Assembly: GCF_013315695.1 (NCBI RefSeq)
Contig: NZ_CP054354.1
Direction: 5' to 3' (one strand)
Origin: Escherichia coli
GTDB taxonomy: Bacteria > Pseudomonadota > Gammaproteobacteria > Enterobacterales > Enterobacteriaceae
Length of the DNA: 64,000 nt
Translations under genes and position numbers: made by a program
Notes under the pieces: generated by a model
What the model was told of the DNA's origin: nothing
The model's database searches: none
What the model saw: only the letters and a program-made list of their open reading frames with translations
In this document: one piece after another, positions 475 through 63,700 of the stretch
Position numbering within the stretch: position 1 is the first letter of the stretch
How the letters are laid out: each line of letters begins with the position of its first letter

Positions 475-1190
475 GCGCACGTTCACGGGCACTGATCCCC
501 CTCAGCGCAGAACAACAGGCCGCCATGCAGGCGGTGGCTGTCACAGAACAACGTCGTCGTCAGGGACGCACACTTTCAGCATGGCCTTATGCCACCGCTT
601 TCTTTCGCTGCCTGAATGGCAGTCGCCGGATTTCGCTGACCGATCTCCGCTTTTTTGCCCCTGCGCTGACGAAGGAGGAATTTCATGGCAACCGTCTCCT
701 GTGGCTGGCTGCCGTGGATAAACTGATTGAAAGTTTTGGGGAAGTCTGTGTTCTTCCCCTGCCATCCGATGCGGGGCACCGTCTGTTCCCGTCCGTGCCT
801 TTTCGTGAAGGTGAGCGTCGTCGTCAGAAAACCACGCTGACAGAGCAGAAATACAGCCGCCAGCGGGAACGTGAGGCAGAACGACGGGAACTGGAATACC
901 AGACATGTTTTGCTCAGGCGCAGATTGACCTTGCGTTTCATACTCCCGCCACGGTCGGAAGCTGGTTGTCCCGCTGGTCTGGTGTTGTTGAGGAGCATGA
1001 TCTGGAAACGATTTTCTGGGGGTGGTGCGGGCGTTTTCCATCACTGTCATCATTTGACCGGTTTTTCTGGCAGGAGGAACCACTCTGGCGGCTGATTTTT
1101 GAAGCCGGTGAGGCCGGTCGTGGTGCACCGGTACAGGTACGTGCACTTGAGCAGTGGATGATCCCGAACAAGCTGGAGAACGTAATATGA
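471..1190 (+). CDS. psiA: PsiA-like protein
   Basis: 239 aa (same length as F PsiA); translationally coupled to psiB; GGAGG 6 nt upstream of ATG 471. Confidence 0.55.
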
Positions 1191-11627: not shown

Positions 11628-13928
11628 TCAGTATTTTTCGTCAGTTGTTGGTTGTGCTCCACATGATTTCTGGGGATGATCATTATTTATTGTCTTCGAT
11701 TTATTATTTTCAGCGACCGGTAACAGTATCTCCAGGGGGAGCAGGGTATTCAGAATCGCCTTCACTGAAGGTATATCTTCAGGACCGGAGTGTTCCTCTT
11801 CCGGACGATTCAGTGTGATATAACATACCCGGCGTTCTTCCCTGGTTGTGTTATTGATAGTGTGCACAGCCTTTTTCCACAGTTCGTTTGCCCGGGATTC
11901 GATATCTGTATCATATTGCGGAAGCAGATCCAGTGATGTCTGCGCTGTTGCCAACCGGCGCTGGAATGTATCAATGATACGGTAAGGCTCTGTACGGTTT
12001 TTACGACGTTTACGGGATGGTTTTGCTGTCAGTACACCGATGATGCTGCTGACATGCTCCGGTGTGGGGAGCCTGCGCTGCACTGTCCTGGGGACGAGAC
12101 GGCGGAGACGCTCCAGCCGGGGGGCTTCAACGGAAATATAGCGGTTGATGACCACCGGATCACTGTCGCAACTTTTCTCGCTGTCCGGAATATACACAGA
12201 GGCTGACGGCACCACATCCCCCTGGAAAACGGTAAAGAACTCACCGGCATTCAGTCTGATCAAATCCTGCACGTCGATTTTGCTTTCCATCTGGATGGTG
12301 ATCTGGTTACCGTCCACCCAGGACTCACCCATCACACCATCGTGGCGCTGCAGGCTGCCCATTCTGGCCCGTGCCTCTTCACCGGCGGCATTTTTCACCG
12401 TTCTTGCCGTTTTGTCGTCACTGACAATGCGTCCGGCGAATTTGGTGCCGGCGTTCTGCATCAGTGTGGCGGTGTTGGTGGCGGAGGTCTGCCCTTCAAT
12501 TCGCTCCTGATCCTGCGCCATCATTATCAGGGAAAACTCCAGTGAACGTACCTGGGTGGCCTCCACAGCAATGCGGTCTGTGTAGTAGGCACCGACTTCG
12601 TCAAGGATACAGATATAGGGGAAGCTGCCTTTGTATTTTTTGACTTCCAGGGTCTGTGCATCTGTGCCTTCCAGGCGGTAGCCCAGGTCACGGGCGAGGA
12701 GCATGCTCTGCTGGGTGACGAACATACGACCGAGTGCCGACGTGGTATGGGCCGATGTGTCCAGTGCAGGGATCATCACAATCAGAATGCGGTCGCTGTG
12801 AATACTGTCGCGAATATCGATATCGCCGGCATCTGCCGCAAAGACGTCCCCGAAGGTTTCGGCAAAGGTTGTGAACGTTTCCGAGAACTGACCGGAGAGA
12901 TAAGCATGCTGTTTACGGGGCTCCTCAGTCCAGGCTGACGGCGTTCTCACCAGTGACATATCGAATCCCGGGACATCCTGCAGGTAGTTTCGCAGTGGTG
13001 CGATAGCTTCTTCCGGCCACTGGTCATCAAGGCCACGGCAATAGAGTTTTGCCATCCCTTCCAGCGTCATATGTTCCCGTAACATCTGCAGGGACATGGT
13101 TTTACCTTCCCGGACGCACCAGAATTTTGTGCCAAAGACCAGGGCTTTGTTCATGGCTATCGCCCGTGACTGCCATTCACCGCCCTGAACGTTCTGGGGC
13201 AGCATGGACTGCATGGTTTCGGCGGTGAAGGCTTCGGTGCTGAATGCGAACGGGTTCCAGGTGTTTGACTGTGGGCGGGATTTATCGCCACTCTGAATGA
13301 CTTCACTGCGGGATTTTCCGCCGTTCATGAAGTTGATGACTTCGATATCATCCTCCCTGCCAAAACGTCGGGAGAGATACCAGATTGTCCTCGTGGTATC
13401 GTTCTGTGCCTTGCCGTCAACAAAGGTAAAGCCTCTTCCCCAGCAGAGCGGGTTGAGCAGCCAGGCAAAGGTGGTTTCTGTTTTACCGCCACCGGTGGTG
13501 GCAAAAAACATGACATGCCGGGTGAGGTCATCCATGCTCAGCCAGAGTTCGCGACCGATATCGTTGATACGGCGGTAACCGACATAAAAAATCCCCCGGG
13601 CGGGGAATGTTTCATCCGCTTCATACTGAAACAGGGTGGGCCAGAAGCTGAAGAGGCTTCTCCTGACCTTTCTGTCCTGGGAGGGGTCATCAAGGCTGAG
13701 TGTCATGGGCATACGCAGGGGGCATCGCCAGCGTTGCAGCATGAATATCACGGAGGTGACCAGGGTGAACAGCAGGCAGACAGGAAGGGCCAGTGGCCAT
13801 ATCAGCGCCGTAATGATACTGCCGGCCAGACACAGACCAGTGATGTTCAGGTTATGCAGTGCATTCCACAACGGGTTTCCCCAGGCCGTGCGGTGTATGA
13901 GGTCAGGATTAACGTGGTGCTGGCTCAT
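11628..13928 (-). CDS. trbC: TrbC-like type IV coupling protein (DotL/IcmO-like)
   Basis: 766 aa; N-terminal TM segments; Walker A FATTGGGKTE; size and position match R64 TrbC. Confidence 0.75.
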   Translation of the reverse strand: MSQHHVNPDLIHRTAWGNPLWNALHNLNITGLCLAGSIITALIWPLALPVCLLFTLVTSVIFMLQRWRCPLRMPMTLSLDDPSQDRKVRRSLFSFWPTLFQYEADETFPARGIFYVGYRRINDIGRELWLSMDDLTRHVMFFATTGGGKTETTFAWLLNPLCWGRGFTFVDGKAQNDTTRTIWYLSRRFGREDDIEVINFMNGGKSRSEVIQSGDKSRPQSNTWNPFAFSTEAFTAETMQSMLPQNVQGGEWQSRAIAMNKALVFGTKFWCVREGKTMSLQMLREHMTLEGMAKLYCRGLDDQWPEEAIAPLRNYLQDVPGFDMSLVRTPSAWTEEPRKQHAYLSGQFSETFTTFAETFGDVFAADAGDIDIRDSIHSDRILIVMIPALDTSAHTTSALGRMFVTQQSMLLARDLGYRLEGTDAQTLEVKKYKGSFPYICILDEVGAYYTDRIAVEATQVRSLEFSLIMMAQDQERIEGQTSATNTATLMQNAGTKFAGRIVSDDKTARTVKNAAGEEARARMGSLQRHDGVMGESWVDGNQITIQMESKIDVQDLIRLNAGEFFTVFQGDVVPSASVYIPDSEKSCDSDPVVINRYISVEAPRLERLRRLVPRTVQRRLPTPEHVSSIIGVLTAKPSRKRRKNRTEPYRIIDTFQRRLATAQTSLDLLPQYDTDIESRANELWKKAVHTINNTTREERRVCYITLNRPEEEHSGPEDIPSVKAILNTLLPLEILLPVAENNKSKTINNDHPQKSCGAQPTTDEKY

Positions 13929-15033
13929 TGTGATACTCCTCGCTATCTGTTGCTTTCAGGAAGAGGCGAACGGAAGTGGCGTCTTTCAGGATGCCGGACG
14001 GCAGGTGCCAGCCGGTATCTGATAACACCCAGGGGGTTCCGCCAAAACCGAACTGGCGGAAAGCCTGGTTATTGACATCGATGGCAGCACGTGCGGCGGT
14101 CAGACACTGTCCATCCTGTGCGGCCGGTGCATCGCCGGTGGGGGCCATACCACTGTCAGCGGAATACAGCTGATGCCATCCGGTCGCCCGTTTTTGTGAG
14201 TCCGGTTCACACAGCAGCGGAGCAGTCCGCTTTGTACTGGACTCCCCGCCAATCACGGAGACCGGATAAATCACCACGCTGAATTCCCGGGCCAGTTGCT
14301 TAAGCGCGGGTTCCAGCAGACGGCAGTTGATGCATGCGGGGTCAAGGAAGGCGTACAGCGTGCGTTCATGACCAGTGGACAGGTTAATGGTGAACATCCC
14401 CCGGTCTGCGTTGCGTTTAAGTACTGTGGCCAGATTACGGCGGGCCTCAGCGGCCTGAACGTGTTGTTCTTCCGTCACTGCCGTCGGGGCGGGGGCAGAA
14501 GAAGGTTCCTGCTGTGTGGGAGCCGGGCGGACCGGGATGCTGTTAACATGATGTTCCGTATGTGGGCGTGGTGTCTCTGTGTCGGTTACTGGTTCAGCTC
14601 TCCATTCCTGAGATGTAGGGTAAGCCAGCGTGGAAGGGGACTCTGCCTTCATCCAGTGGTAACCTGCAACTGTCGCCGGCAGAGCAATTCCGGCGATAAA
14701 GCCACACATCAGTGTCCGCCAGAAGCCATTTTTCCGGGAGGGATGTTTTCCTTTTCCGGCATATTCGGCATCCAGGCAGGCATCAATCGCTGAGAGCATT
14801 CTGCCGATGTGATGTCCGGGACGTTCTGCATCAACGGTATCAACAAGCACCGTTTCGGTTATTTCGCGAAAAGGGGAACTGAAGGACAGGTGCATCAGCC
14901 TGTTATTACGGTTAATCAGTGCGCCCAGTTCTGTGACTGGCAGGATGGCAATCACCTCCCGATTACCGTCAGGGTACAGGGCGGTCAGGGACAGGTGTTT
15001 ATTATTCAGTGTTGCAGTGTAGTGGATGGTCAT
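13909..15033 (-). CDS. trbB: TrbB-like thioredoxin-fold (DsbC-like) protein
   Basis: 374 aa; CxxC motif in FLDPACINC; start overlaps trbA stop (ATGA). Confidence 0.6.
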   Translation of the reverse strand: MTIHYTATLNNKHLSLTALYPDGNREVIAILPVTELGALINRNNRLMHLSFSSPFREITETVLVDTVDAERPGHHIGRMLSAIDACLDAEYAGKGKHPSRKNGFWRTLMCGFIAGIALPATVAGYHWMKAESPSTLAYPTSQEWRAEPVTDTETPRPHTEHHVNSIPVRPAPTQQEPSSAPAPTAVTEEQHVQAAEARRNLATVLKRNADRGMFTINLSTGHERTLYAFLDPACINCRLLEPALKQLAREFSVVIYPVSVIGGESSTKRTAPLLCEPDSQKRATGWHQLYSADSGMAPTGDAPAAQDGQCLTAARAAIDVNNQAFRQFGFGGTPWVLSDTGWHLPSGILKDATSVRLFLKATDSEEYHNEPAPR

Positions 15034-20985: not shown

Positions 20986-21138
20986 ATGCCACAACGAACG
21001 TTTTTAATGATGTTAATCGTCGTCTGTGTGACGATACTGTGTTTTGTCTGGATGGTGAGGGATTCGCTTTGCGGATTTCGTATCGAGCAGGGAAATACGG
21101 TGCTTGTGGCAACGTTAGCCTACGAAGTTAAACGTTAA
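20986..21138 (+). CDS. hok: Hok/Gef-family type I toxin (PndA/Hok-like), 50 aa
   Basis: Not in ORF track (<60 aa). MPQRTFLMMLIVVCVTILCFVWMVRDSLCGFRIEQGNTVLVATLAYEVKR matches the Hok/PndA pattern; overlapped in another frame by ORF 20838..21131 (mok-like). Confidence 0.7.
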   Translation: MPQRTFLMMLIVVCVTILCFVWMVRDSLCGFRIEQGNTVLVATLAYEVKR

Positions 21139-21275
21139 CGGGCAACACGGCGGTAGAGAATCTGCCGCCGGATTGTTGCGAAGGCTGACCTCAATGCGCC
21201 TTGTTTGTCTTTTTTACCGGACGACTGCTGGTTGCTGCTGTCCGGCAGCTATTATTTTTTCCGTCCTGTGCGTCA

Positions 21276-22862
21276 TCAATTATGACAGTCGCTCTCATTT
21301 AGTTGTCTCTGGTTAGATGTATTATTAGATATTTTCGGGGTAATTCGATAAAAGTTATCCACTTCAGCACCAGACTGAATGATATATGCAATAAGATCTA
21401 AACGATGAATCTCGTATCGTGTACGTAACTCCATCATTTCACGCCATGCTAAAATCCTTGATGTTTTCAGTTCAGCCTCTATAAGTTTCCATGTGTTTGT
21501 TGAGATGGCATGTTCTTCCAGCTGACGTAACGAGAACCTATCACTAATGACCAACCATCCCCATCCTCGAGTATGTGCCCATTTGCGACCTGCATTACTT
21601 TTTATTCTCGTGAGACTCAAGGTCATTCGGTCTGTTGGCTTCACTTCCATAAGTAGGCACCGACCATCAACTGTCGCAATGAGTAAATCTGGATAGTATT
21701 TTTTTGATTTGTTTTTAAAACAATATGGAATAGAAAATGGTTGTTCTTGATAGAAAAGAACCTGATCGCAACATTCTAATAGATTCATTATTTTAAACTC
21801 AAGCCCTGATTCGTACTGGACTGTACGACCTAATTTTTGAGAGTAAAAGAATCCAGATATGTCAGTATCATTAACCGCTCTCTGTGAACATAGCTGTTCT
21901 ACGGGGGGAGGAGGTGCGATATATTTTGGCCAATGTGTATTGTCTAGCCATTTACTGAATATGAACTCAACTCTTTCTTTCTTGATTCGGGCTCTTTCCT
22001 GAGCGCGAGCGTGTGCTAATTCTGCTCTTCGTTCACGTAACCTCTGCTTTTGTAATTGTGATATTAATGAGAGCGAACTTTTTATTTCATCTCGTCTTGC
22101 TTTAGGAATGCCTGCGGTAAAAATAATGAATTTGGCGGCTAAGTCAGAGGATGTAACGAAATCCCGATGAACAATACGATAAATCCATACTGCTATATCA
22201 TATGGTGAATTACCTATTGAGTTAATAAGGGCTTTAAGGCAAGCTCCAGGTGTCCCTTCATAGCGAGATTTAGCAGCTAGTAAGCCAAGGGCTCGTTCCT
22301 GAAGTTGTCTTACCCTTTCACGGGAAATTCCTAATTTGACGGCAATATCTGCCAGAGAATGAGGTGAATCATCTGTGCCGAGTCGCATTAGAAGAATATA
22401 TTGATGTCGTTTATTAGATAAACTTTCGATAGCAGAATGAATTAGCATAATGACATCATGTTCATCGGCTATATAATCTTTAAAATCTGTATTGGGTTGG
22501 CAGAGGGGGAGTGGGGTATTTTGTTTAAAACTATTCTTTTGTATTTCAACTTTATCATGAGCAATTGTTTTTGCAGTGCTCAATGATATTAAATTATTGA
22601 TGATACTATTGTGTTCTTGGCGAGGAATCTTGTTGAAGTAATTGCTGAGATCATTCACCGTGTTTATATCGTTGAACTCAAGAAACTCAGAAGGAAGCAG
22701 GCGTTTGATTGCTCCACGTATTCCCCCGGACGATCGTTGATGTGTTTGAGTAAGTTTTTTTAGCGAGACGCCCTCCGCTATGGATACGAGAAGACGCTGT
22801 AACTCTTCAGTATTCCATGGAGTACCATGTCGTGCTGGAAAATTGCTGCGGGATTCAGACAT
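21276..22862 (-). CDS. sigma-70 region-4-like HTH fused to PD-(D/E)xK (TnsA-like) nuclease motif; unknown function
   Basis: 528 aa; HQYILLMRLGTDDSPHSLADIAVKLGISRERVRQLQERALGLL fits sigma-70 region 4.2; C-terminal YYPDLLIATVDGRCLLMEVKP fits PD...EVK; lies in a visibly AT-rich segment. Confidence 0.55.
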   Translation of the reverse strand: MSESRSNFPARHGTPWNTEELQRLLVSIAEGVSLKKLTQTHQRSSGGIRGAIKRLLPSEFLEFNDINTVNDLSNYFNKIPRQEHNSIINNLISLSTAKTIAHDKVEIQKNSFKQNTPLPLCQPNTDFKDYIADEHDVIMLIHSAIESLSNKRHQYILLMRLGTDDSPHSLADIAVKLGISRERVRQLQERALGLLAAKSRYEGTPGACLKALINSIGNSPYDIAVWIYRIVHRDFVTSSDLAAKFIIFTAGIPKARRDEIKSSLSLISQLQKQRLRERRAELAHARAQERARIKKERVEFIFSKWLDNTHWPKYIAPPPPVEQLCSQRAVNDTDISGFFYSQKLGRTVQYESGLEFKIMNLLECCDQVLFYQEQPFSIPYCFKNKSKKYYPDLLIATVDGRCLLMEVKPTDRMTLSLTRIKSNAGRKWAHTRGWGWLVISDRFSLRQLEEHAISTNTWKLIEAELKTSRILAWREMMELRTRYEIHRLDLIAYIIQSGAEVDNFYRITPKISNNTSNQRQLNESDCHN

Positions 22863-23135
22863 GATTTTATCTTTATGTTTTCTAGGTACTGCCTTGAGTG
22901 TGTGGATATGATAATTATTTGTAATGATATTGTTATCTTTTATAGATAACTGATATGCAGAATTGTATTGATTTTGTCTACAGTGGGCAAGACAGTGCTA
23001 AGAATTTGTGGGGAAAACATAGAGACTCCATGCGGCGTCCTGAGATAGACGGCAGACAGGCATTCTGCCTGAAAAGAAAAAGCCGGTTCAGAGAAAACCG
23101 GCTGACGGATTATCGTCTAACAGTTGATAGCTACC

Positions 23136-23789
23136 TCAAAATACTTCTGCAACAGGAACACCGGCAACTTTTTCCCACTCTTTAACCCGATACCGGATCA
23201 TCTGTGGGAAACGTTCCTTGTACTCATATCCACGTGCAGCCATGGTGTGCATGGTGTTGGCCAGCGTCCTTGCTGAGATGCCGGAGATCTCAAGAGGAAT
23301 CATCGGCAGACTCACATAGGTGGTGTGGATTTCCAGCTTGCCGTCTTCAGCAACCGTGCGGGTAAAGTTGTGAATATCCAGACCAATCACATCCATCACA
23401 TTGTTTGGATAAATACGCACATACAGCATGGTGCCGTTTTTAATGTCGATCCCGAAATAACAACTCTTCGAGAATGACAGTTGCTCATAATCGCTGGTCG
23501 GCGCAAAGGGACTGCTTTCTTTTATCTGCTGAACAACCTGCTGGACTTTCTTTTTCTTCGCTCTGGTTTTCATATATAGCCAGAGTGATGGGAGTATTAA
23601 TAGGAGCCAACTGCCATAAGTATATAGATATGCTTGAATATCTGTTTCTATATATGGTTCTGTAAGCATCATACCGGTAAATCCTAGAGAACATAGTAAT
23701 AAAAAAGGAACACCAAATATAAAATAAGCAGTGCGGATAAGGTAATAATATGCCCACCAGGAAGGATATCTGCTTTTTGTTGTGTTCAT
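23136..23789 (-). CDS. excA: ExcA-like entry-exclusion inner-membrane protein
   Basis: 217 aa; N-terminal TM segments; immediately downstream of traY as in R64; AT-rich. Confidence 0.45.
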   Translation of the reverse strand: MNTTKSRYPSWWAYYYLIRTAYFIFGVPFLLLCSLGFTGMMLTEPYIETDIQAYLYTYGSWLLLILPSLWLYMKTRAKKKKVQQVVQQIKESSPFAPTSDYEQLSFSKSCYFGIDIKNGTMLYVRIYPNNVMDVIGLDIHNFTRTVAEDGKLEIHTTYVSLPMIPLEISGISARTLANTMHTMAARGYEYKERFPQMIRYRVKEWEKVAGVPVAEVF

Positions 23790-56735: not shown

Positions 56736-57173
56736 CTAATTCATCCAGATGATGACCTGATCGGGGATCACAGCAGGGAGCGTGATGGAAATACGCCGCC
56801 CACGGGTGTCCAGGAGGCGACCGTTTTCCACTCTGGCAAGCAGGGCCGAATCACCACTTTGTTCCAGGAGGGCACCCATAAGGCCGGGTTTTTCTTTTGC
56901 CCAGACAAAAACGCGCTGCTGACTGATGAGGTGGCTGACGTTTTTCGTGGCGGGCAGACCGAGCTGTGCTGACGTGAGCTGACCACCGGCAGCACGTCGT
57001 TCAGGGTGCTGATACAGGTAATCGTTGATGGCATTCATATAACGAATAAAGTCTGCAGCCTGCTGTGTGATTTCAGCGGTCTGCTGATGGTGCACAGTAC
57101 GGCTGAGGTGACTGTGGAACCAGAAATTACCAATGGCCATAATGACCATAATGAAACCCGTAACCCATCCCAT
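56736..57173 (-). CDS. pilM: PilM-like inner-membrane protein
   Basis: 145 aa; single N-terminal TM segment. Confidence 0.55.
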   Translation of the reverse strand: MGWVTGFIMVIMAIGNFWFHSHLSRTVHHQQTAEITQQAADFIRYMNAINDYLYQHPERRAAGGQLTSAQLGLPATKNVSHLISQQRVFVWAKEKPGLMGALLEQSGDSALLARVENGRLLDTRGRRISITLPAVIPDQVIIWMN

Positions 57174-57176
57174 AGG

Positions 57177-58247
57177 TTATTCCTGCGGGCGGTCTGTCAC
57201 ACGGAGCAGGCATTGTGCAGTGCTGGTCCGGGCATACAGCGGTTTTTCAGCCGGGGTATAGAGTGCAAAGAGCTGCTCCAGCGCCTGGCGGAAACTGCCG
57301 GTGAAAACCAGAGGGGCATCGATGCTGTAGTTGACAGGTGTTTCCCAGCGCAGTGTCCATGTGCCGTGCGGGCATTTTTCGGATGATGTCCAGCGGGCCA
57401 GTCCGTCTTTCAGGGTGGTCCCCTTTTCCATTTTCCACTGCCGTGGCGGTATGACCTTCTGCTGTGGTGGCACTACCGGTTTCGTGGCCACCGGGGCTGG
57501 CGTGGTTGTTCTGCTCTCTGGAGTTCCGGATCTCCCGGTGGTGGTCTGAGCCCGGGAAACGCTGACGGCAGGTGTCACTGGTGTCGGGCCTGCCGGCGTT
57601 GCGGCGCTGCCCCTGAACGGATTACGCGGTGTATCAGCAGCTTTCTGTGAACCCTGCGGTGCCGTGACGTCGACCGGCGGTGTTGCAGAGGTCGTGACAG
57701 TCAGTATTTTCCTGTTCCAGTCCATATGTCCGTAAAGCTGCTGGCCGGCCAGCAGCGCATTCAGTGCCCGGTGCCACTGGTCATTAACGGACCAGACGGG
57801 GAGGCGTTTGTTCAGTGCCGGTATGGCAGCGTTCTGTTGCCGGAACTGCCAGCCGGGTGGTAGCAACTGGCGTATCCAGTCACTGACGGAGCGCTGATGT
57901 GCCTCACGTAAATAAACGACGGATGACTGACCGGGTTTACCGGTCATAACCAGTGCGGGCAGCTGTGTGGCCTGAAGGAGCGGACGGGGAGGCAGTGCGG
58001 TACTCTGGCTGCTGACTGCGGTTGTGGGCGTCGCTGTTGTTGTCGGGCGGGGCGGCGTCACAGGGCGGGTCACCGGTGGCGGAAGCAGACGTTTTTGCGT
58101 ATGGGCGATAATGGCAGCGCTTTCGCGAATTTGTCCGTCGACGAACACCAGAGCCGGAGGCGTGGTGTCAGGAACAGGCGTGGCATTAAATGCCGTACAG
58201 CCGCTGAGTAATGACGGCAGAAGGAGTGTAAGTGATTTCTTTTTCAT
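57177..58247 (-). CDS. pilL: PilL-like lipoprotein (TcpQ-like C-terminal domain)
   Basis: 356 aa; lipobox LLSGC; Pro/Thr-rich linker; first gene of pil operon. Confidence 0.7.
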   Translation of the reverse strand: MKKKSLTLLLPSLLSGCTAFNATPVPDTTPPALVFVDGQIRESAAIIAHTQKRLLPPPVTRPVTPPRPTTTATPTTAVSSQSTALPPRPLLQATQLPALVMTGKPGQSSVVYLREAHQRSVSDWIRQLLPPGWQFRQQNAAIPALNKRLPVWSVNDQWHRALNALLAGQQLYGHMDWNRKILTVTTSATPPVDVTAPQGSQKAADTPRNPFRGSAATPAGPTPVTPAVSVSRAQTTTGRSGTPESRTTTPAPVATKPVVPPQQKVIPPRQWKMEKGTTLKDGLARWTSSEKCPHGTWTLRWETPVNYSIDAPLVFTGSFRQALEQLFALYTPAEKPLYARTSTAQCLLRVTDRPQE

Positions 58248-58473
58248 AGAATAAATCCGGTATGTATCGGGTTACGGTATAAGACAGGTGGCTGGTAACA
58301 GGTCTTCAGATAAATATAATTTCATCAGGATATTGATGATGAACATTCATGTTCGGGGTGATTATGAAAACTAAAATATTCCGGTTCCGGAAATATAAAA
58401 AGAAAAACGTCCTGCTGCAAATGATAGTTTCCAGAAAACAAGTGATATTGTTTTTCAGAACTGGAACATTATT

Positions 58474-58809
58474 TTATTTCTTGCCTGTTATTGAAACATG
58501 TCCGGTTATGATCTCCGAATGGCAGGTATCAATAAAATCACTTTTCCCCGATTGTGTGTCAAAGTCAACGTGGGTGAATCTGTGTACATCCTGCCATATG
58601 GTGAAACAGACAGGACAGGTAACAGGTAGTTTACCTTCAGCTATTTTTTCGCAGCTTTCAACCAGTTGCTGCGCCTTGTTGTATCTGACGTTATAGCCAT
58701 TTGTGCAAAGCGTTTCATACCCATGAGCTCCTGTAACTATATGTGTGGCGATTCTTTCGTGGACTCTCCCATTAATTAATAATTGTTCACGTGTTGTGAT
58801 TGTTCTCAT
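58474..58809 (-). CDS. hypothetical protein with CxxC motif, 111 aa
   Basis: ORF in AT-rich stretch; ...CPVCFTIW... Confidence 0.35.
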   Translation of the reverse strand: MRTITTREQLLINGRVHERIATHIVTGAHGYETLCTNGYNVRYNKAQQLVESCEKIAEGKLPVTCPVCFTIWQDVHRFTHVDFDTQSGKSDFIDTCHSEIITGHVSITGKK

Positions 58810-58924
58810 GCCTGTTTCTCAATTGGTCATAACAGAAAATAATCTGCATTCCTGAAAAATATCGCGGTTGTGAAATATTTAATTTTTACCCCCTTTTATG
58901 GGGGATGAAAAGCAGGCTGTCAGG

Positions 58925-59167
58925 CTATAACTGAACGCGGTTTCTGGATTTTGGTGCTAATGTCACATCTTTCCATTCACAGCTGCTTCCGGGAATACGC
59001 TCTTTGCGTCGTATTATACGGGAGTTCTGACACACAATAATTAAGCCATTGTCTGCCGTCTGAAATGGCATTATAGCGATGTTTATATCTTCTGTTGCAG
59101 GAATATAACTGACTTTCTTTTCACATGTATTGGTGTATATGACAACTCTGAATTTTTCTGCGGACAT
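58925..59167 (-). CDS. hypothetical small protein
   Basis: Internal start MSAEKFRVVIY... of ORF 58925..59242; AT-rich stretch. Confidence 0.3.
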   Translation of the reverse strand: MSAEKFRVVIYTNTCEKKVSYIPATEDINIAIMPFQTADNGLIIVCQNSRIIRRKERIPGSSCEWKDVTLAPKSRNRVQL

Positions 59168-59247
59168 TTTCAATCCTCTTTTAAACCAGAATATCCCGTG
59201 AGGGCATTCTTTGTGAAAAAGATGCCGGAAAAATTCCGGCACGGGGA

Positions 59248-60942
59248 TTAAACCTGTTGTGGTTCTGAGTTATCCGGAGCGGTTACCGGTTCGCTGACAT
59301 CCGGAACCTTTTCCGGGGCAGGCATGACCAGTGGACGTGTCAGGGCTGTAAGTCCTTCACCGGATAAACCCACCTCTTTCAGCAGGGAGTCGATGAGCGG
59401 AGCCTGTGTACGGTAAGCCAGAGCGGCGGTTACTGCCTGTTCAGCGAGATTTCCGCCACTTATGTCGGTTGTTGCTGTTTTACCGCGGGTAACACCGCCA
59501 TTCAGACCATCCACCTGAATGATTTTAATACCGTCAATGGATTTCATTGGTTCTGTGGACTTCTCTATGACGGCAGGTAATGCATCCAGCAGGGCAAGAC
59601 GGAAGCGGAGGCTGGTCTGCTCATCCGAAAGCACGTTAATGGCATCGTTCAGTGCGCGCTGTGCTTCTGCTTCTGCCAGACCTTTCTGACGGGTGGCCTC
59701 CGCCAGTTCAATAATTGCTGCTGCCTGGAGTTCGGCTGCTTCTTTTTCAGCCTGTGCGCGAACCGTCAGTTCAACCGCTTTCGTTTCAGCTTCCTGAGCA
59801 GCAGCAATCAGGGCAACCTGTTTGGTACGGTCGGCCTCCGCAGTCTGGCGGGTGGTTTCCACATCCTGCTGGGCCTGTACGGCCTCAGCCAGTGCTTTAC
59901 TTGCCCGGGCTTCTGCCTGTGACTGCTCTTCCGATTTTGCCGCCACGGCAATGGCTCTGGCCTGGCTGGCGATTTCGGTTGCCTGCTGTTGCTCAATTTC
60001 CCGTATGGCCACTTCCCGTTCGGCTTCGACCTGGCGGGTACGCACTATCTGCTGTCGTTCGATTTCGGCTTCCTCTATCTTACGTTCAGCCAGAATTCGC
60101 GCGGATTCTGCTTCACGACGTCGTTCAGCTTCAATAGCAGCAATACTGGCACTCTGCTCTGCCGTACGGGTTTTTACCCGTTGTTGTTGCTCCAGAGTCA
60201 TGAAGGCTTCCTGCTGTTCAATCTCCAGACGTCGGGAGAGTGCATCCCGGTTTTTTTCCCTGATGGCCACTTCAACATCCTGCTCAACTTCGTTGCGTTC
60301 GCGACGACGACGTTCTGTTTCCTGGGTCAGAAGGGTCAGGCCTTCAGCATCAAAGGCATTGTCAGGATTAAAATGTACCCGTGCAGTCTGGTTGAAACTT
60401 GTCAGCGACACACTTTCAAGCTCCAGACCGTTTTTGGATAAGTCTTCCGCAACGGTGTTCTGCACACCCTGAACAAAGTTCTCGCGGGCATCCTGTAAAT
60501 CCTGCATGCTCATTCTGGCCGCCGTGGCCCGTAGGGCATCAACAAATTTATCCTCGACCAGACTACGCAGATCTTCAGGTGTGAGCGTGCGTTGTCCCAG
60601 CGTCTGGGCTGCAGTGGATATTCCTTCGGCTGATGGTTTTACCCGAAGAAAAAAGGCAACGGCAACATCAACACGCATGCGGTCGCGGGTTATGAGACTT
60701 TCAGCCGCTGCACGACTGACTTCCAGCTTCAGGGTGTTCATGTTGACGGGAATTGTTTCGTGAAAAATGGGCATAACAATTGCACCGCCACTCATTACCA
60801 CTTTTTGGCCTCCCAGACCTGTGCGGACAAAGGCCTGCTCTGCCGATGCCCGGCGGTACAGGCGGGCAAATATCAGCCCGATAACGAACAGGGTGAGGAC
60901 CAGCGCTATAACGGTAAACAACCATCCCGGAAGATTAAACAT
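59248..60942 (-). CDS. yqiK: flotillin-like SPFH-domain protein (YqiK-like)
   Basis: 564 aa; N-terminal TM, SPFH region, long Ala/Glu/Gln/Arg coiled coil. Confidence 0.7.
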   Translation of the reverse strand: MFNLPGWLFTVIALVLTLFVIGLIFARLYRRASAEQAFVRTGLGGQKVVMSGGAIVMPIFHETIPVNMNTLKLEVSRAAAESLITRDRMRVDVAVAFFLRVKPSAEGISTAAQTLGQRTLTPEDLRSLVEDKFVDALRATAARMSMQDLQDARENFVQGVQNTVAEDLSKNGLELESVSLTSFNQTARVHFNPDNAFDAEGLTLLTQETERRRRERNEVEQDVEVAIREKNRDALSRRLEIEQQEAFMTLEQQQRVKTRTAEQSASIAAIEAERRREAESARILAERKIEEAEIERQQIVRTRQVEAEREVAIREIEQQQATEIASQARAIAVAAKSEEQSQAEARASKALAEAVQAQQDVETTRQTAEADRTKQVALIAAAQEAETKAVELTVRAQAEKEAAELQAAAIIELAEATRQKGLAEAEAQRALNDAINVLSDEQTSLRFRLALLDALPAVIEKSTEPMKSIDGIKIIQVDGLNGGVTRGKTATTDISGGNLAEQAVTAALAYRTQAPLIDSLLKEVGLSGEGLTALTRPLVMPAPEKVPDVSEPVTAPDNSEPQQV

Positions 60943-60968
60943 AGTGAGAACCTCTGTATATGTCGGGA

Positions 60969-61589
60969 TTAAAGAACATCCGGCCAGGGATTCAGTTCGC
61001 CCAGCCAGCGGGAACCGGAAAGACGGCAGACAATAATCACTTTGTCTCCTCGTCTGAATTCTTTCCCGGCCTCCGGCTCCAGCAACAGGTAATGAACCTG
61101 CCCGAAGCGGTCTGTGAAGCGACCTTCACAGGGGGAACCCGCCACTGCGTGATAACCAGTGATGGTGGCCATACAGCCGATGAATGCCTCCTCGGTGAGC
61201 GCCGTTGTTTCATCACGGGGTAACCAGGGGGCAATCAGTCTGCCGGTGCGGTGTACGAGAGGACATGTCAGCAGCAGGCAAAGTGGTGCAAGGAGAATGT
61301 TCGGAGCAGGAGCCTGCAGCAGATGAATAATAAGACCCTGCAGGAGAATGCCGGATATACCAAAAAAACCTGCCAGCATACAGAGGACGATCAGCAGGGG
61401 GATCCGTCCGATGTTCAGCCAGTCCAGCGCCTCTCCTGTCAGACCCTCCGGTAAATCAGGTGTATCCATAGCTGAAGAGAGGGAGTGTCCGCAGAGCAGG
61501 GCGATAAGTTCAGCGATACCAGTAAGCAGAACAAAAGTCAGGGCTGCCAGATAGGGTGCGTTATACGCGGTAAGTAACGTCAGTGTCAT
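60969..61589 (-). CDS. yqiJ: NfeD-like membrane protein (YqiJ-like)
   Basis: 206 aa; multiple TM segments; immediately upstream of the flotillin gene, the conserved NfeD-SPFH pairing. Confidence 0.6.
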   Translation of the reverse strand: MTLTLLTAYNAPYLAALTFVLLTGIAELIALLCGHSLSSAMDTPDLPEGLTGEALDWLNIGRIPLLIVLCMLAGFFGISGILLQGLIIHLLQAPAPNILLAPLCLLLTCPLVHRTGRLIAPWLPRDETTALTEEAFIGCMATITGYHAVAGSPCEGRFTDRFGQVHYLLLEPEAGKEFRRGDKVIIVCRLSGSRWLGELNPWPDVL

Positions 61590-61855: not shown

Positions 61856-62518
61856 TCAGTGTAAAAGCAGACTGTTGTCCATGCCCCATTCCTCTTCCGC
61901 TAAACCTGAATGGCCCACATGAAGAATGCGTGACAGCATATTTCTGCCGCTGCCGTTCAGACTGCATTCGCGCCCGTGTGCGAGCATAAAACCTTCATCC
62001 CGGAATATCTCTTCAACCTCAGACGTGTTGATGGTGGCCGGATGGATTAATGAAAATGCCACCGGTCTGATCATTCTGCCCGTGGTGGAAAAGGTGTCCC
62101 CGGTGCTGTTCAGCTGCAGGATATGACGTTTCCCGGTCTGTGCGCGGGAAAGTGTCTCACTCAGTAACTGGTCATTCCATGCGCACGTGCCAATCTGCCA
62201 TCCCAGACTCCTGCACGTGGCAAGAGCCGAGCGGAAGCGGTACAGGTCGTATAATGCTGCGTTATTGCCACTTTCCAGCAGTGATTTCAGGGTGTTTGCT
62301 ACCGGTATGTCTGAATTGGTGGCCAGCAGTTTTCGCAGGGTAGTGAACTCTTCAGCCATTCCTCTGAACTCGCGCATCTGACGGGCAGTGTCAAGCCAGT
62401 TCAGCAGGTAACGCCGGCGACGCCGTTCGTTGTTTATGTTGTCCGGGGCGGTGGAGAGTGCTTCGAGCATATTCTCCAGTAACAGAATGACAGGGTTTTC
62501 CTGGGATAGAATGGTCAT
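61856..62518 (-). CDS. hypothetical protein, 220 aa
   Basis: ORF only. Confidence 0.4.
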   Translation of the reverse strand: MTILSQENPVILLLENMLEALSTAPDNINNERRRRRYLLNWLDTARQMREFRGMAEEFTTLRKLLATNSDIPVANTLKSLLESGNNAALYDLYRFRSALATCRSLGWQIGTCAWNDQLLSETLSRAQTGKRHILQLNSTGDTFSTTGRMIRPVAFSLIHPATINTSEVEEIFRDEGFMLAHGRECSLNGSGRNMLSRILHVGHSGLAEEEWGMDNSLLLH

Positions 62519-62658: not shown

Positions 62659-63300
62659 TCATGTCAACGCTCCGTCATCAGATACCAGGTGCAGGAGCAG
62701 GGCGATCCTCGACTCCGGCAGAGGCTGTGCATCAAGCCGGAGGAGGTACTGGTAACGCGCTTTTGTCAGCCAGAGGGTGGAGGCAGCATCCAGCTCCTCC
62801 CTGGCTGCCGGATTGAGCGCAGGATCCGGGTACACTTTCATCAAAGACTGAACGATATCCTCCCTGACGGTTTTGATTTCACCGGCCATTTTCACGAAGT
62901 CCAGAAAGGCACTGTGACGGCGAAGGTGAGTGAAGCTGTGGCTTTCGGGGTCTGCTTTCAGGAAAAAGTAACCGGGAAACACGGCGTGTATATGTCGACG
63001 GTAACCACAGACTTTATCCGTGCGGCGGACCTTTTTCAGTATCAGGGGTGTCCAGGGAAGGACGTGTTGTTCGGAAAGCCAGGAAAAGAGATGTTCGCGG
63101 TTTTTGCCGGCAGGGATGTACTGTGCCAGATACCAGTTGCGTTGATGTAATTCACTGATATTCAAAATCCGGAACGCTCCGCGAAAATCGATCCCCGCAG
63201 GGGGGCTTCGATGTTGTTGTGAACGGCGAATACATAAAGCATGTGTCGGAAACAGCGGCTGACCCACGTTCAGCCTGGCCTGCAGTTCTGACAGGCACAT
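62659..63300 (-). CDS. NusG/RfaH-family (NGN-domain) protein, ActX-like candidate
   Basis: 213 aa; WYLAQYIPAGKNREHLFSWLSEQ...HAVFPGYFFLKADPE resembles the NGN domain; lies at the head of the long minus-strand transfer block. Confidence 0.45.
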   Translation of the reverse strand: MCLSELQARLNVGQPLFPTHALCIRRSQQHRSPPAGIDFRGAFRILNISELHQRNWYLAQYIPAGKNREHLFSWLSEQHVLPWTPLILKKVRRTDKVCGYRRHIHAVFPGYFFLKADPESHSFTHLRRHSAFLDFVKMAGEIKTVREDIVQSLMKVYPDPALNPAAREELDAASTLWLTKARYQYLLRLDAQPLPESRIALLLHLVSDDGALT

Positions 63301-63437
63301 GATTTACGCACTCTTGTAAGCCTTGTGGACGGTTTCGAGGCGGGCGAAAACCGACAACTCCTGCAAACAGGATTAATGGCTGGAAAATATATCACATAAG
63401 GATGTATCTGTGGCAAGAGCGAAGATAAGCAGTTGAA

Positions 63438-63700
63438 TAGATCGTTATATTTGATAAGACAGAATATTATTCTGTATTTGATGTTGTGTGCGGGATATTA
63501 GATCGTTTAAAAAAATTCGGCGATCTCTTCTACTGGAAAAGAAGAAAAAAGCAGCATAAAAGATCGTTTGTGAAATTGTTCATTTTTTTGACAGAGTTCA
63601 AAAAAACGACGCTTTTTAGGGGGTTAAAGAGGGCAACTGTAACTCTGAGAAATCGTGTCGGCTTTTCAAAGCGGTGGAAAAGGGGTATATTGCGGATCGT
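63438..63700. promoter_or_regulatory. four (A/G)GATCGTT motifs, the first three spaced 60-61 bp apart
   Basis: GATC at 63440, 63501, 63561 and 63695 each followed by GTT; AT-rich region upstream of the NusG-like gene. Confidence 0.3.

Follow-up and report, generated by a model that had tools for sequence, protein, structure and literature searches.

What occupies the head of the thin-pilus operon where its genes depart from those of plasmid R64? In R64 (NC_005014), the gene order is pilL, pilK (encoding 196 amino acids, aa), pilJ (150 aa), pilI (84 aa), traD, traC, and traB. The question arises in a stretch of 64,000 nucleotides from Escherichia coli contig NZ_CP054354.1, which was analyzed as a whole (hereafter, the window): here, pilL, the first conserved gene of the pilus machine, is separated from a flotillin gene by an AT-rich islet (58248..59247) with two small open reading frames (ORFs) on the minus strand, ORF1 (58474..58809) and ORF2 (58925..59167). 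An initial annotation of the window had proposed that these ORFs replace pilI, pilJ, and pilK, either as divergent pilus accessory proteins or as unrelated cargo. Sequence comparison identified ORF2 as PilI and set ORF1 apart from both PilJ and PilK, and we hold these two identifications jointly with high confidence. With less assurance, we also consider it likely that the islet forms the variable head of a type IVB thin-pilus operon, that this operon belongs to a conjugative plasmid of the IncB/O/K/Z type within the I-complex, and that ORF1 is accessory cargo in the islet.

The drop in base composition immediately upstream of pilL, from which the initial annotation had started, was evident. 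At a G+C content of 0.393, the islet lies ∼2.8 standard deviations below the window mean of 0.535 (1-kb windows, standard deviation of 0.051); across 58200..59300, the content is 0.35 to 0.43, compared with 0.55 to 0.63 in pilL and 0.53 to 0.55 in the flotillin gene. Both ORFs were present as first drawn, directly upstream of pilL, and both showed purifying selection, with ratios of nonsynonymous to synonymous substitution rates (dN/dS) of 0.22 for ORF1 against a 70%-identical paralogue and 0.15 for ORF2 against the IncK2 copy.

ORF2 matches PilI

ORF2 matched the Pfam family PilI (PF10623) with 108.7 bits, against a cutoff of 25 (E = 1.1e-31), over profile positions 2 to 76 of 77. Its alignment with R64 PilI covered 62 residues at 32% identity (E = 1e-12) and took in a PGS-x-C-x-W stretch common to both, and the identical protein WP_001271734.1 bears the name PilI in RefSeq. 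Like its R64 counterpart, which is of nearly equal size (80 versus 84 aa), the ORF2 protein is soluble and basic (isoelectric point [pI] of 9.5), and its gene is located between the traBC regulators and pilL, i.e., at the head of the type IVB pil operon and downstream of traB and traC, which matches the R64 arrangement. The two differ in that identity is only 32% and in that ORF2 is AT rich (G+C content of 0.40) where R64 pilI is GC rich (0.58). ORF2 contains three Cys residues. Its start was taken to be the ATG at 59167, which yields the 80-aa form, in preference to a longer ORF beginning with the GTG at 59242, because this GTG falls within a terminator-like hairpin and the Pfam match begins at residue 5 of the 80-aa form. 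To judge by this homology, this lineage has its PilI orthologue in ORF2, an ordinary pilus-operon gene and not cargo. Yoshida et al. reportedly found in 1999 that R64 pilI is dispensable for pilus formation, and, judging in part by the titles of R64 thin-pilus papers, so is R64 pilJ.

ORF1 resembles neither PilJ nor PilK

ORF1 encodes a soluble protein of 111 aa, identical to WP_001335624.1 of pCT and pHUSEC41-1. It has five Cys residues, two of which belong to the CxxC motif pointed out in the initial annotation (CPVC at residues 65 to 68). PilJ was compared by BLASTP and hydropathy, and the profile-profile comparison covered the PilK family. With R64 PilJ, ORF1 gave no BLASTP alignment at E ≤ 100, and with R64 PilK only chance alignments were obtained, the best at E = 0.43. 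Comparison of an ORF1-family profile built from 35 relatives with the PilK-family profile by hhalign returned a probability of 0.06%. The top 19-residue hydropathy value was 0.71 for ORF1, compared with 2.75 for PilJ and 2.83 for PilK; clear membrane segments are present in all three of R64 PilJ, PilK, and TraD and absent from ORF1, and the two N-terminal membrane segments of PilJ have no counterpart in it. ORF1 is also shorter than either protein (111 versus 150 and 196 aa). What it shares with pilJ and pilK is the slot between pilI and pilL, the orientation, and AT-richness, and with pilK in particular a position directly upstream of pilL on the same strand, which is the sole common feature of the two and the origin of a published label discussed below. 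The distributions differ as well: R64 PilK is confined to IncI1-type plasmids, whereas ORF1 relatives are scattered over many plasmid types. These comparisons indicate that ORF1 is neither PilJ nor PilK and is unrelated to both.

When the R64 proteins were searched against the 64-kb window with tblastn, PilI, PilL, PilM, TraC, and TraB found matches (31 to 66% identity), and PilJ, PilK, and TraD found none anywhere. Of the three genes proposed to be replaced, only pilJ and pilK are missing; pilI is kept as ORF2. Similarity to PilI, PilJ, or PilK, which the initial annotation had held to speak against cargo, was found for ORF2 and not for ORF1.

R64 PilK and TraD are paralogues of each other (27% identity over 180 residues, E = 3e-15; R64 locus L002, 45692-46282 and 47349-47915) that share membrane segments and a conserved C-terminal region; the window is without both. 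The PilK family is very narrow, comprising 14 clusters that are all at least 67% identical.

Gene content between pilI and pilL varies among related plasmids

By blastn against the IncK2/Z plasmids pDV10 and pEND_Eco19019-2, ORF1 was found to lie on a replaceable segment of ∼600 bp (58348..58943): homology to both plasmids ends at 58944 and returns at 58347. Both encode a PilI that is 81 to 86% identical and share pilL-pilM DNA at ∼90% identity, and ORF1 is absent from them. Their counterpart of the segment measures 631 to 939 bp and carries an unrelated 143-aa ORF with several predicted membrane segments, which is also unrelated to PilJ and PilK. This ORF lies on the pil strand (pEND_Eco19019-2 locus L019, 2814-3245, plus strand; pDV10 locus L018, 2055-2486, plus strand); at this place, RefSeq has no annotation in pEND_Eco19019-2 and, in pDV10, only a 131-aa ORF on the opposite strand. 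In the Salmonella plasmid pSNE1-2010K-2159, pilI is followed by pilL after 58 bp, so that the slot is empty. On the other side of ORF1, the spacer to pilL (58248..58473, minus strand; G+C content of 0.345) ends in 100 bp (58248..58347) of conserved pilL backbone. A repeat search found no direct or inverted repeats flanking ORF1 that would mark insertion by a mobile element.

Published gene contents vary in the same region. The IncI2 plasmid TP114 has a working thin pilus without pilI, pilJ, and pilK (PMC9045228), and the pil operon of Salmonella Typhi likewise lacks all three (PMC6232867). The traD/pilI/pilJ/pilK segment is also a mosaic within IncI1, where alternative alleles occur, pilL and pilK may be separated by an extra gene, or two small genes take the place of pilJ (PMC8004404), and the IncI1 plasmid pESBL is without traD and has no pilJ listed (PMC4288162).

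AT-richness extends to genes that differ between lineages. ORF1 has a G+C content of 0.414, and R64 pilJ (0.355) and pilK (0.369) are themselves AT rich; for this reason, the AT-rich patch appears to be a common property of the slot, filled with different genes in each lineage. The ORF1-family gene was more AT rich than its surroundings in all three contexts compared. Small, AT-rich, horizontally acquired genes would be taken up by the slot between pilI and pilL: R64 has pilJ and pilK there, the present plasmid has ORF1, IncK2/Z plasmids have a membrane ORF, and pSNE1 has none.

The ORF1 family is widespread on Enterobacterales plasmids

ORF1 found no match in Pfam or NCBIfam, nor, at E ≤ 1, among the phage and antiphage-defense families of PHROGs and PADLOC; ORF2 was likewise without a match in NCBIfam and, at the same threshold, in PHROGs and PADLOC. 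A PDB sequence search with ORF1 yielded chance matches only, and literature searches with the RefSeq accessions of the islet proteins found nothing. A large protein collection contained 114 ORF1 relatives, down to 45% identity, each labeled hypothetical and each from a member of the Enterobacterales (Escherichia, Klebsiella, Salmonella, Pantoea, Erwinia, Pectobacterium, Yersinia, and Ewingella). When 1.84 billion representatives were searched exhaustively with a profile, just 53 clusters were returned, i.e., the ORF1 family itself and three artifacts (P0132, P0139, and P0146) that were dismissed as repeat proteins on reading their sequences.

Ten residues (T22, H23, I24, L34, C35, C65, C68, W72, F78, and F83) were invariant in a 35-sequence alignment reaching down to 36% identity, and H29 was conserved in at least 90% of it. 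Four of the invariant residues, His23, Cys35, Cys65, and Cys68, are potential metal ligands in the pattern H-x11-C-x29-C-x2-C. Since His23, Cys35, and Cys65-Pro-x-Cys68 are invariant, a single structural zinc site is suggested, and ORF1 probably folds around one structural zinc ion. The predicted model was confident (predicted local distance difference test score of 86), with the Cys65/Cys68 pair beginning the sole helix. It matched none of the solved folds, zinc-finger regulators included, and ORF1 matched no described zinc-finger family; no membrane segment, signal peptide, or recognized DNA-binding domain was found in the protein. Family members are mostly ∼105 to 111 aa long and mostly acidic (median pI of 5.1, net charge down to −15).

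By tblastn, the family was present on 1,960 plasmid records, 678 of which were predicted to be nonmobilizable. Copies identical to ORF1 occupied the slot between pilI and pilL in the sampled IncB/O and IncK1 plasmids. Copies at ∼70% identity were divergent from parM-stbB on IncI-gamma/K-type plasmids, a 72% copy was divergent from a VirB4-containing operon, a 61% copy lay near ParA on a plasmid of mating-pair formation type MPF_T, and copies at ∼59% on Klebsiella IncFIB/HI1B virulence plasmids were flanked by a Tus-like gene and a tyrosine recombinase. Distant relatives were located between TraF and TraH of an F-like operon, and another near Hha and a Dam-type methylase; a Hha-family gene lay within a few kilobases in two contexts outside the present slot. 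The relatives at 59 to 72% identity were on plasmids without thin-pilus genes nearby. Among the contexts sampled there was no constant neighbor and no common target operon, and the sole constant association of the family is with Enterobacterales plasmids.

In metagenomic F-like transfer regions, a distant relative that is 163 aa long and extended at its N terminus overlaps the stop codon of a gene for a 733-aa TrwB-like coupling protein and is followed by genes for a phospholipase D (PLD)-family nuclease and a ribbon-helix-helix (RHH) regulator; this arrangement was seen on four contigs (L011, 1576-4261; L012; L013; and L014).

The name pilK in published work is positional

The islet corresponds to DNA studied earlier by transposon-directed sequencing of insertion sites (TraDIS) in the IncB/O/K/Z plasmid pMS7163B, for which pilI (243 bp), “pilK” (336 bp), and pilL (1071 bp) were reported (PMC10286972). 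Gene lengths and spacings in the window equal those of pMS7163B (243/115/336/226/1071 bp), and its PilI and “PilK” proteins are 100% identical to those of pHUSEC41-1 (PMC10286972, Table F). Because lengths and spacings match and the proteins are identical via pHUSEC41-1, we take ORF1 to be the published “pilK” (pMS7163B_00180). The tBLASTn table of the same study, comparing R64 with pHUSEC41-1, has no match in the latter for R64 PilI, PilJ, PilK, or TraD, and so missed the PilI described here (PMC10286972, Table E). A transfer-gene database lists IncB/O/K with pilI and pilK and not pilJ (PMC10682676); from this combination, we infer that its pilK is the gene of ORF1. The name pilK is positional, and the comparisons with R64 PilK given above do not support it as a statement of homology.

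Surface mating enriched for insertions in pilI and “pilK,” with log2 fold changes (Log2FC) of +2.9 and +3.2 (PMC10286972). The authors filtered such enrichments out as single-site read bias, and no repressor was confirmed (PMC10286972). The screen was one of surface mating, in which the thin pilus is not needed, whereas it matters in liquid mating; the TraDIS record shows only that pilI and “pilK” are not needed for surface transfer. The head-of-pil region in this data set, pMS7163B 13620..14537, corresponds approximately to 58474..59390 of the window (PMC10286972, Table A). In it, insertions in ORF 160, pilI, and “pilK” were all enriched, as were those in pilO further downstream (Log2FC of +2.4 to +3.2, very low false-discovery rate; PMC10286972). 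Were this enrichment real, possible causes would be read-out from the cassette or a relieved cost of pil expression. As a cause of the positive scores, the Hft hyper-transfer region described in pESBL was weighed and rejected, because it lies between traA and repY instead (PMC4288162).

ORF1 is likely to be accessory cargo

Of the two alternatives raised in the initial annotation, pilus accessory or unrelated cargo, the second does not apply to ORF2, an ordinary pilus gene by its PF10623 match, and ORF1 is better described by the second. We favor cargo for ORF1 because relatives are found on many plasmids without a thin pilus and because close pil operons swap or omit it. Several points weigh against this reading. 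ORF1 keeps its slot, its orientation, and its sequence (100% conserved) across IncB/O and IncK1 plasmids, and R64 PilK, which occupies the same slot, is required for thin-pilus biogenesis to go by the titles of R64 papers; these two facts leave room, on sequence alone, for a nonhomologous functional replacement. Moreover, the data on dispensability of ORF1 come from surface mating, and the thin pilus matters only in liquid. The evidence for cotranscription with the pil genes is common orientation, promoter- and terminator-like matches being at the level of shuffled sequence. Zinc binding is predicted from conserved residues, and the proposal of protein binding made below draws on charge and on the lack of other features.

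ORF1 is probably transcribed together with pilI and the downstream pil genes and would hence be made when TraB and TraC turn on the transfer genes. It might act by binding another protein, a host factor or a general plasmid factor and not a part of the pilus, for instance as an inhibitor or adaptor that aids the plasmid in its host. We offer this mode of action tentatively; what suggests it is the acidity of the family, together with the lack of a membrane segment, a signal peptide, and a recognized DNA-binding domain. From general knowledge, ORF1 may be likened to TraR of F (with a DksA-type C4 zinc finger) and to the acidic antirestriction protein ArdA: like these it is small, soluble, plasmid borne, and often acidic, is encoded in or beside transfer operons of several mating-pair types, and has Cys/His ligands. 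It differs from these families in having no Pfam, NCBIfam, PADLOC, or fold match and in a ligand pattern that is not that of the C4 DksA/TraR finger. More speculatively still, ORF1 could found an undescribed zinc-stabilized family, with a fold outside the solved structures and present on ∼1,900 Enterobacterales plasmids, that binds or inhibits a host factor, e.g., in an antidefense or host-modulating role.

We consider it improbable that ORF1 is instead a nonhomologous functional stand-in for PilK or PilJ, i.e., a lineage-specific thin-pilus assembly factor of IncB/O/K1 plasmids. Its position and orientation directly upstream of pilL are those of R64 pilJ and pilK, the latter being the gene whose requirement is announced in paper titles; pCT, pHUSEC41-1, and pMS7163B strictly conserve it along with pilI, and two papers call the gene pilK (PMC10286972, PMC10682676). 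However, ORF1 is soluble where PilJ and PilK contain membrane segments, with no sequence or profile similarity between them, and its relatives at 59 to 72% identity are on plasmids without type IV pilus genes nearby. IncK2/Z plasmids whose pilL-pilM DNA is ∼90% identical do without ORF1, the slot of pSNE1 is empty, and TP114 builds its pilus without pilI, pilJ, or pilK (PMC9045228).

Equally doubtful is a role as a small zinc-finger DNA- or RNA-binding regulator that tunes the pil operon or counters silencing of the islet. The conserved His/Cys3 motif with CPxC at a helix start would suit such a protein, as would its location at an operon head within AT-rich DNA, the Hha-family genes within a few kilobases in two other contexts, and the enrichment of pilI and “pilK” insertions after mating (Log2FC of about +3; PMC10286972). 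Yet the prevailing acidity of the family, as given above, is unusual for nucleic acid binders, neither a DNA-binding domain nor a fold match to zinc-finger regulators was found, and the contexts of the family have no common target operon; as to the enrichment, the authors set it aside as a read bias at single sites, with no repressors confirmed (PMC10286972). The idea that AT-rich noncoding DNA gave rise to one or both ORFs by chance, which their shortness, the composition of the region, and a 115-aa antisense ORF overlapping ORF1 might suggest, is refuted by the conservation data, i.e., the PilI match of ORF2 (E = 1e-31) and the 114 relatives, invariant residues, dN/dS of 0.22, and confident predicted fold of ORF1, and we give it next to no credence.

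Putative expression signals in the islet

A terminator-like hairpin with a 9-bp GC-rich stem followed by CUUUUUC (59222..59242, minus strand) was located by a terminator scan directly after the flotillin stop codon, and the RNA fold of the flotillin-pilI spacer (59168..59247) had a z score of −3.2 against shuffles. A sigma-70 promoter-like site (59188..59217, minus strand; TTCACA, a spacer of 16 to 18 nucleotides, and GATATT/TATTCT), identified by consensus match only, lies 20 nucleotides upstream of the pilI ATG. Promoter- and terminator-like matches were no more numerous than in shuffled sequence. The pilI-ORF1 spacer (58810..58924, minus strand) contains a CCCCC/GGGGG hairpin (58889..58904) and a long-range stem; it folds with −29.4 kcal/mol (z = −3.1), and none of 200 shuffles folded equally well. 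The outer stem pairs the GAGAAACAGGC stretch directly before the ORF1 AUG, and it may act as a translational brake that restrains synthesis of ORF1. In the ORF1-pilL spacer, the promoter/terminator scan of the minus strand gave a promoter-like site at 58421..58392 and, at 58392..58379, a weak hairpin; the fold of this spacer was not significant (z = −1.8). Near the islet, no RfaH-type ops element (GGCGGTAGnnTG) was found that might mark an operon leader dependent on TraB; a lone ops-like match with one mismatch, at 939..950, is within chance. An Rfam scan of 57900..59600 returned only a chance microRNA match.

Neighboring genes and plasmid background

All genes around the islet are on the minus strand: traB, encoding a NusG/RfaH-like protein (62659..63300); a traC-like gene (61856..62518); a gene for a YqiJ-like protein with an oligonucleotide/oligosaccharide-binding (OB) fold (60969..61589; Pfam YqiJ_N/YqiJ_OB); the flotillin gene (59248..60942; Pfam Flot/Band_7); pilL (57177..58247), encoding 356 aa with a TcpQ domain (Pfam, E = 1e-16) and 41% identity to R64 PilL; and pilM (56736..57173). 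Along the minus strand, the arrangement comprises traB, traC, the flotillin and yqiJ-like genes, a putative terminator, pilI, ORF1, pilL, and further pil genes.

The flotillin and yqiJ-like genes (59248..61589), a scaffold pair for membrane microdomains at the start of a conjugative-plasmid pilus operon, lie between traC and pilI, where R64 has traD. By blastn, the pair is missing from pCT and pDV10 apart from short flotillin remnants: pCT lacks 59349..61536 of the window (pCT locus L017, 21852-21861) and keeps the final ∼100 bp of the flotillin gene, and pDV10 retains a 181-bp internal flotillin fragment at 99.4% identity (pDV10 locus L018, 1506-1686). Because remnants remain in both, the pair looks ancestral to the lineage and lost by independent deletions.

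Only one other part of the window, 21 to 23.3 kb, is as AT rich as the islet. It reaches a minimum G+C content of 0.372 per kilobase (21000..23300) and contains a 528-aa ORF (21276..22862), annotated on identical plasmids as a protein with a TnsA-endonuclease N-terminal domain, and the surface-exclusion gene excA (23136..23789). A further dip to 0.37, with strong positive GC skew, directly upstream of traB (63300..63700) is presumably the traB promoter/regulatory region.

Many complete conjugative plasmids from E. coli, Shigella, and, in a few cases, Klebsiella match the region around the islet at 99.9% identity. One of them is pHUSEC41-1 (NC_018995), which MOB-suite typed as IncI1/B/O, MOBP, and MPF_I and which the literature types as IncB/O/K/Z (PMC10286972). 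The full 1.1-kb islet stretch was present in 254 of 5,426 complete E. coli genomes and was plasmid borne every time.

Implications for I-complex plasmids

The islet is an already known, widespread piece of I-complex plasmid backbone, and the value of its identification is corrective: the “pilK” of IncB/O/K/Z plasmids is, by the comparisons made here, not PilK, and therefore R64-based presence/absence tables and the functional inferences drawn from them would be wrong for this lineage. IncB/O/K/Z plasmids appear to be without homologues of PilJ, PilK, and TraD. This adds to the evidence that the conserved thin-pilus machine comprises pilL to pilV only and that the operon head is a place where small AT-rich genes are exchanged. 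Carriers of the ORF1 family include Klebsiella virulence plasmids as well as IncB/O/K, IncI-gamma, F-like, and VirB-type conjugative plasmids. Being very common on clinically important plasmids and having neither name, domain assignment, nor fold match, the family would be a reasonable, low-priority target for screens of plasmid accessory genes.

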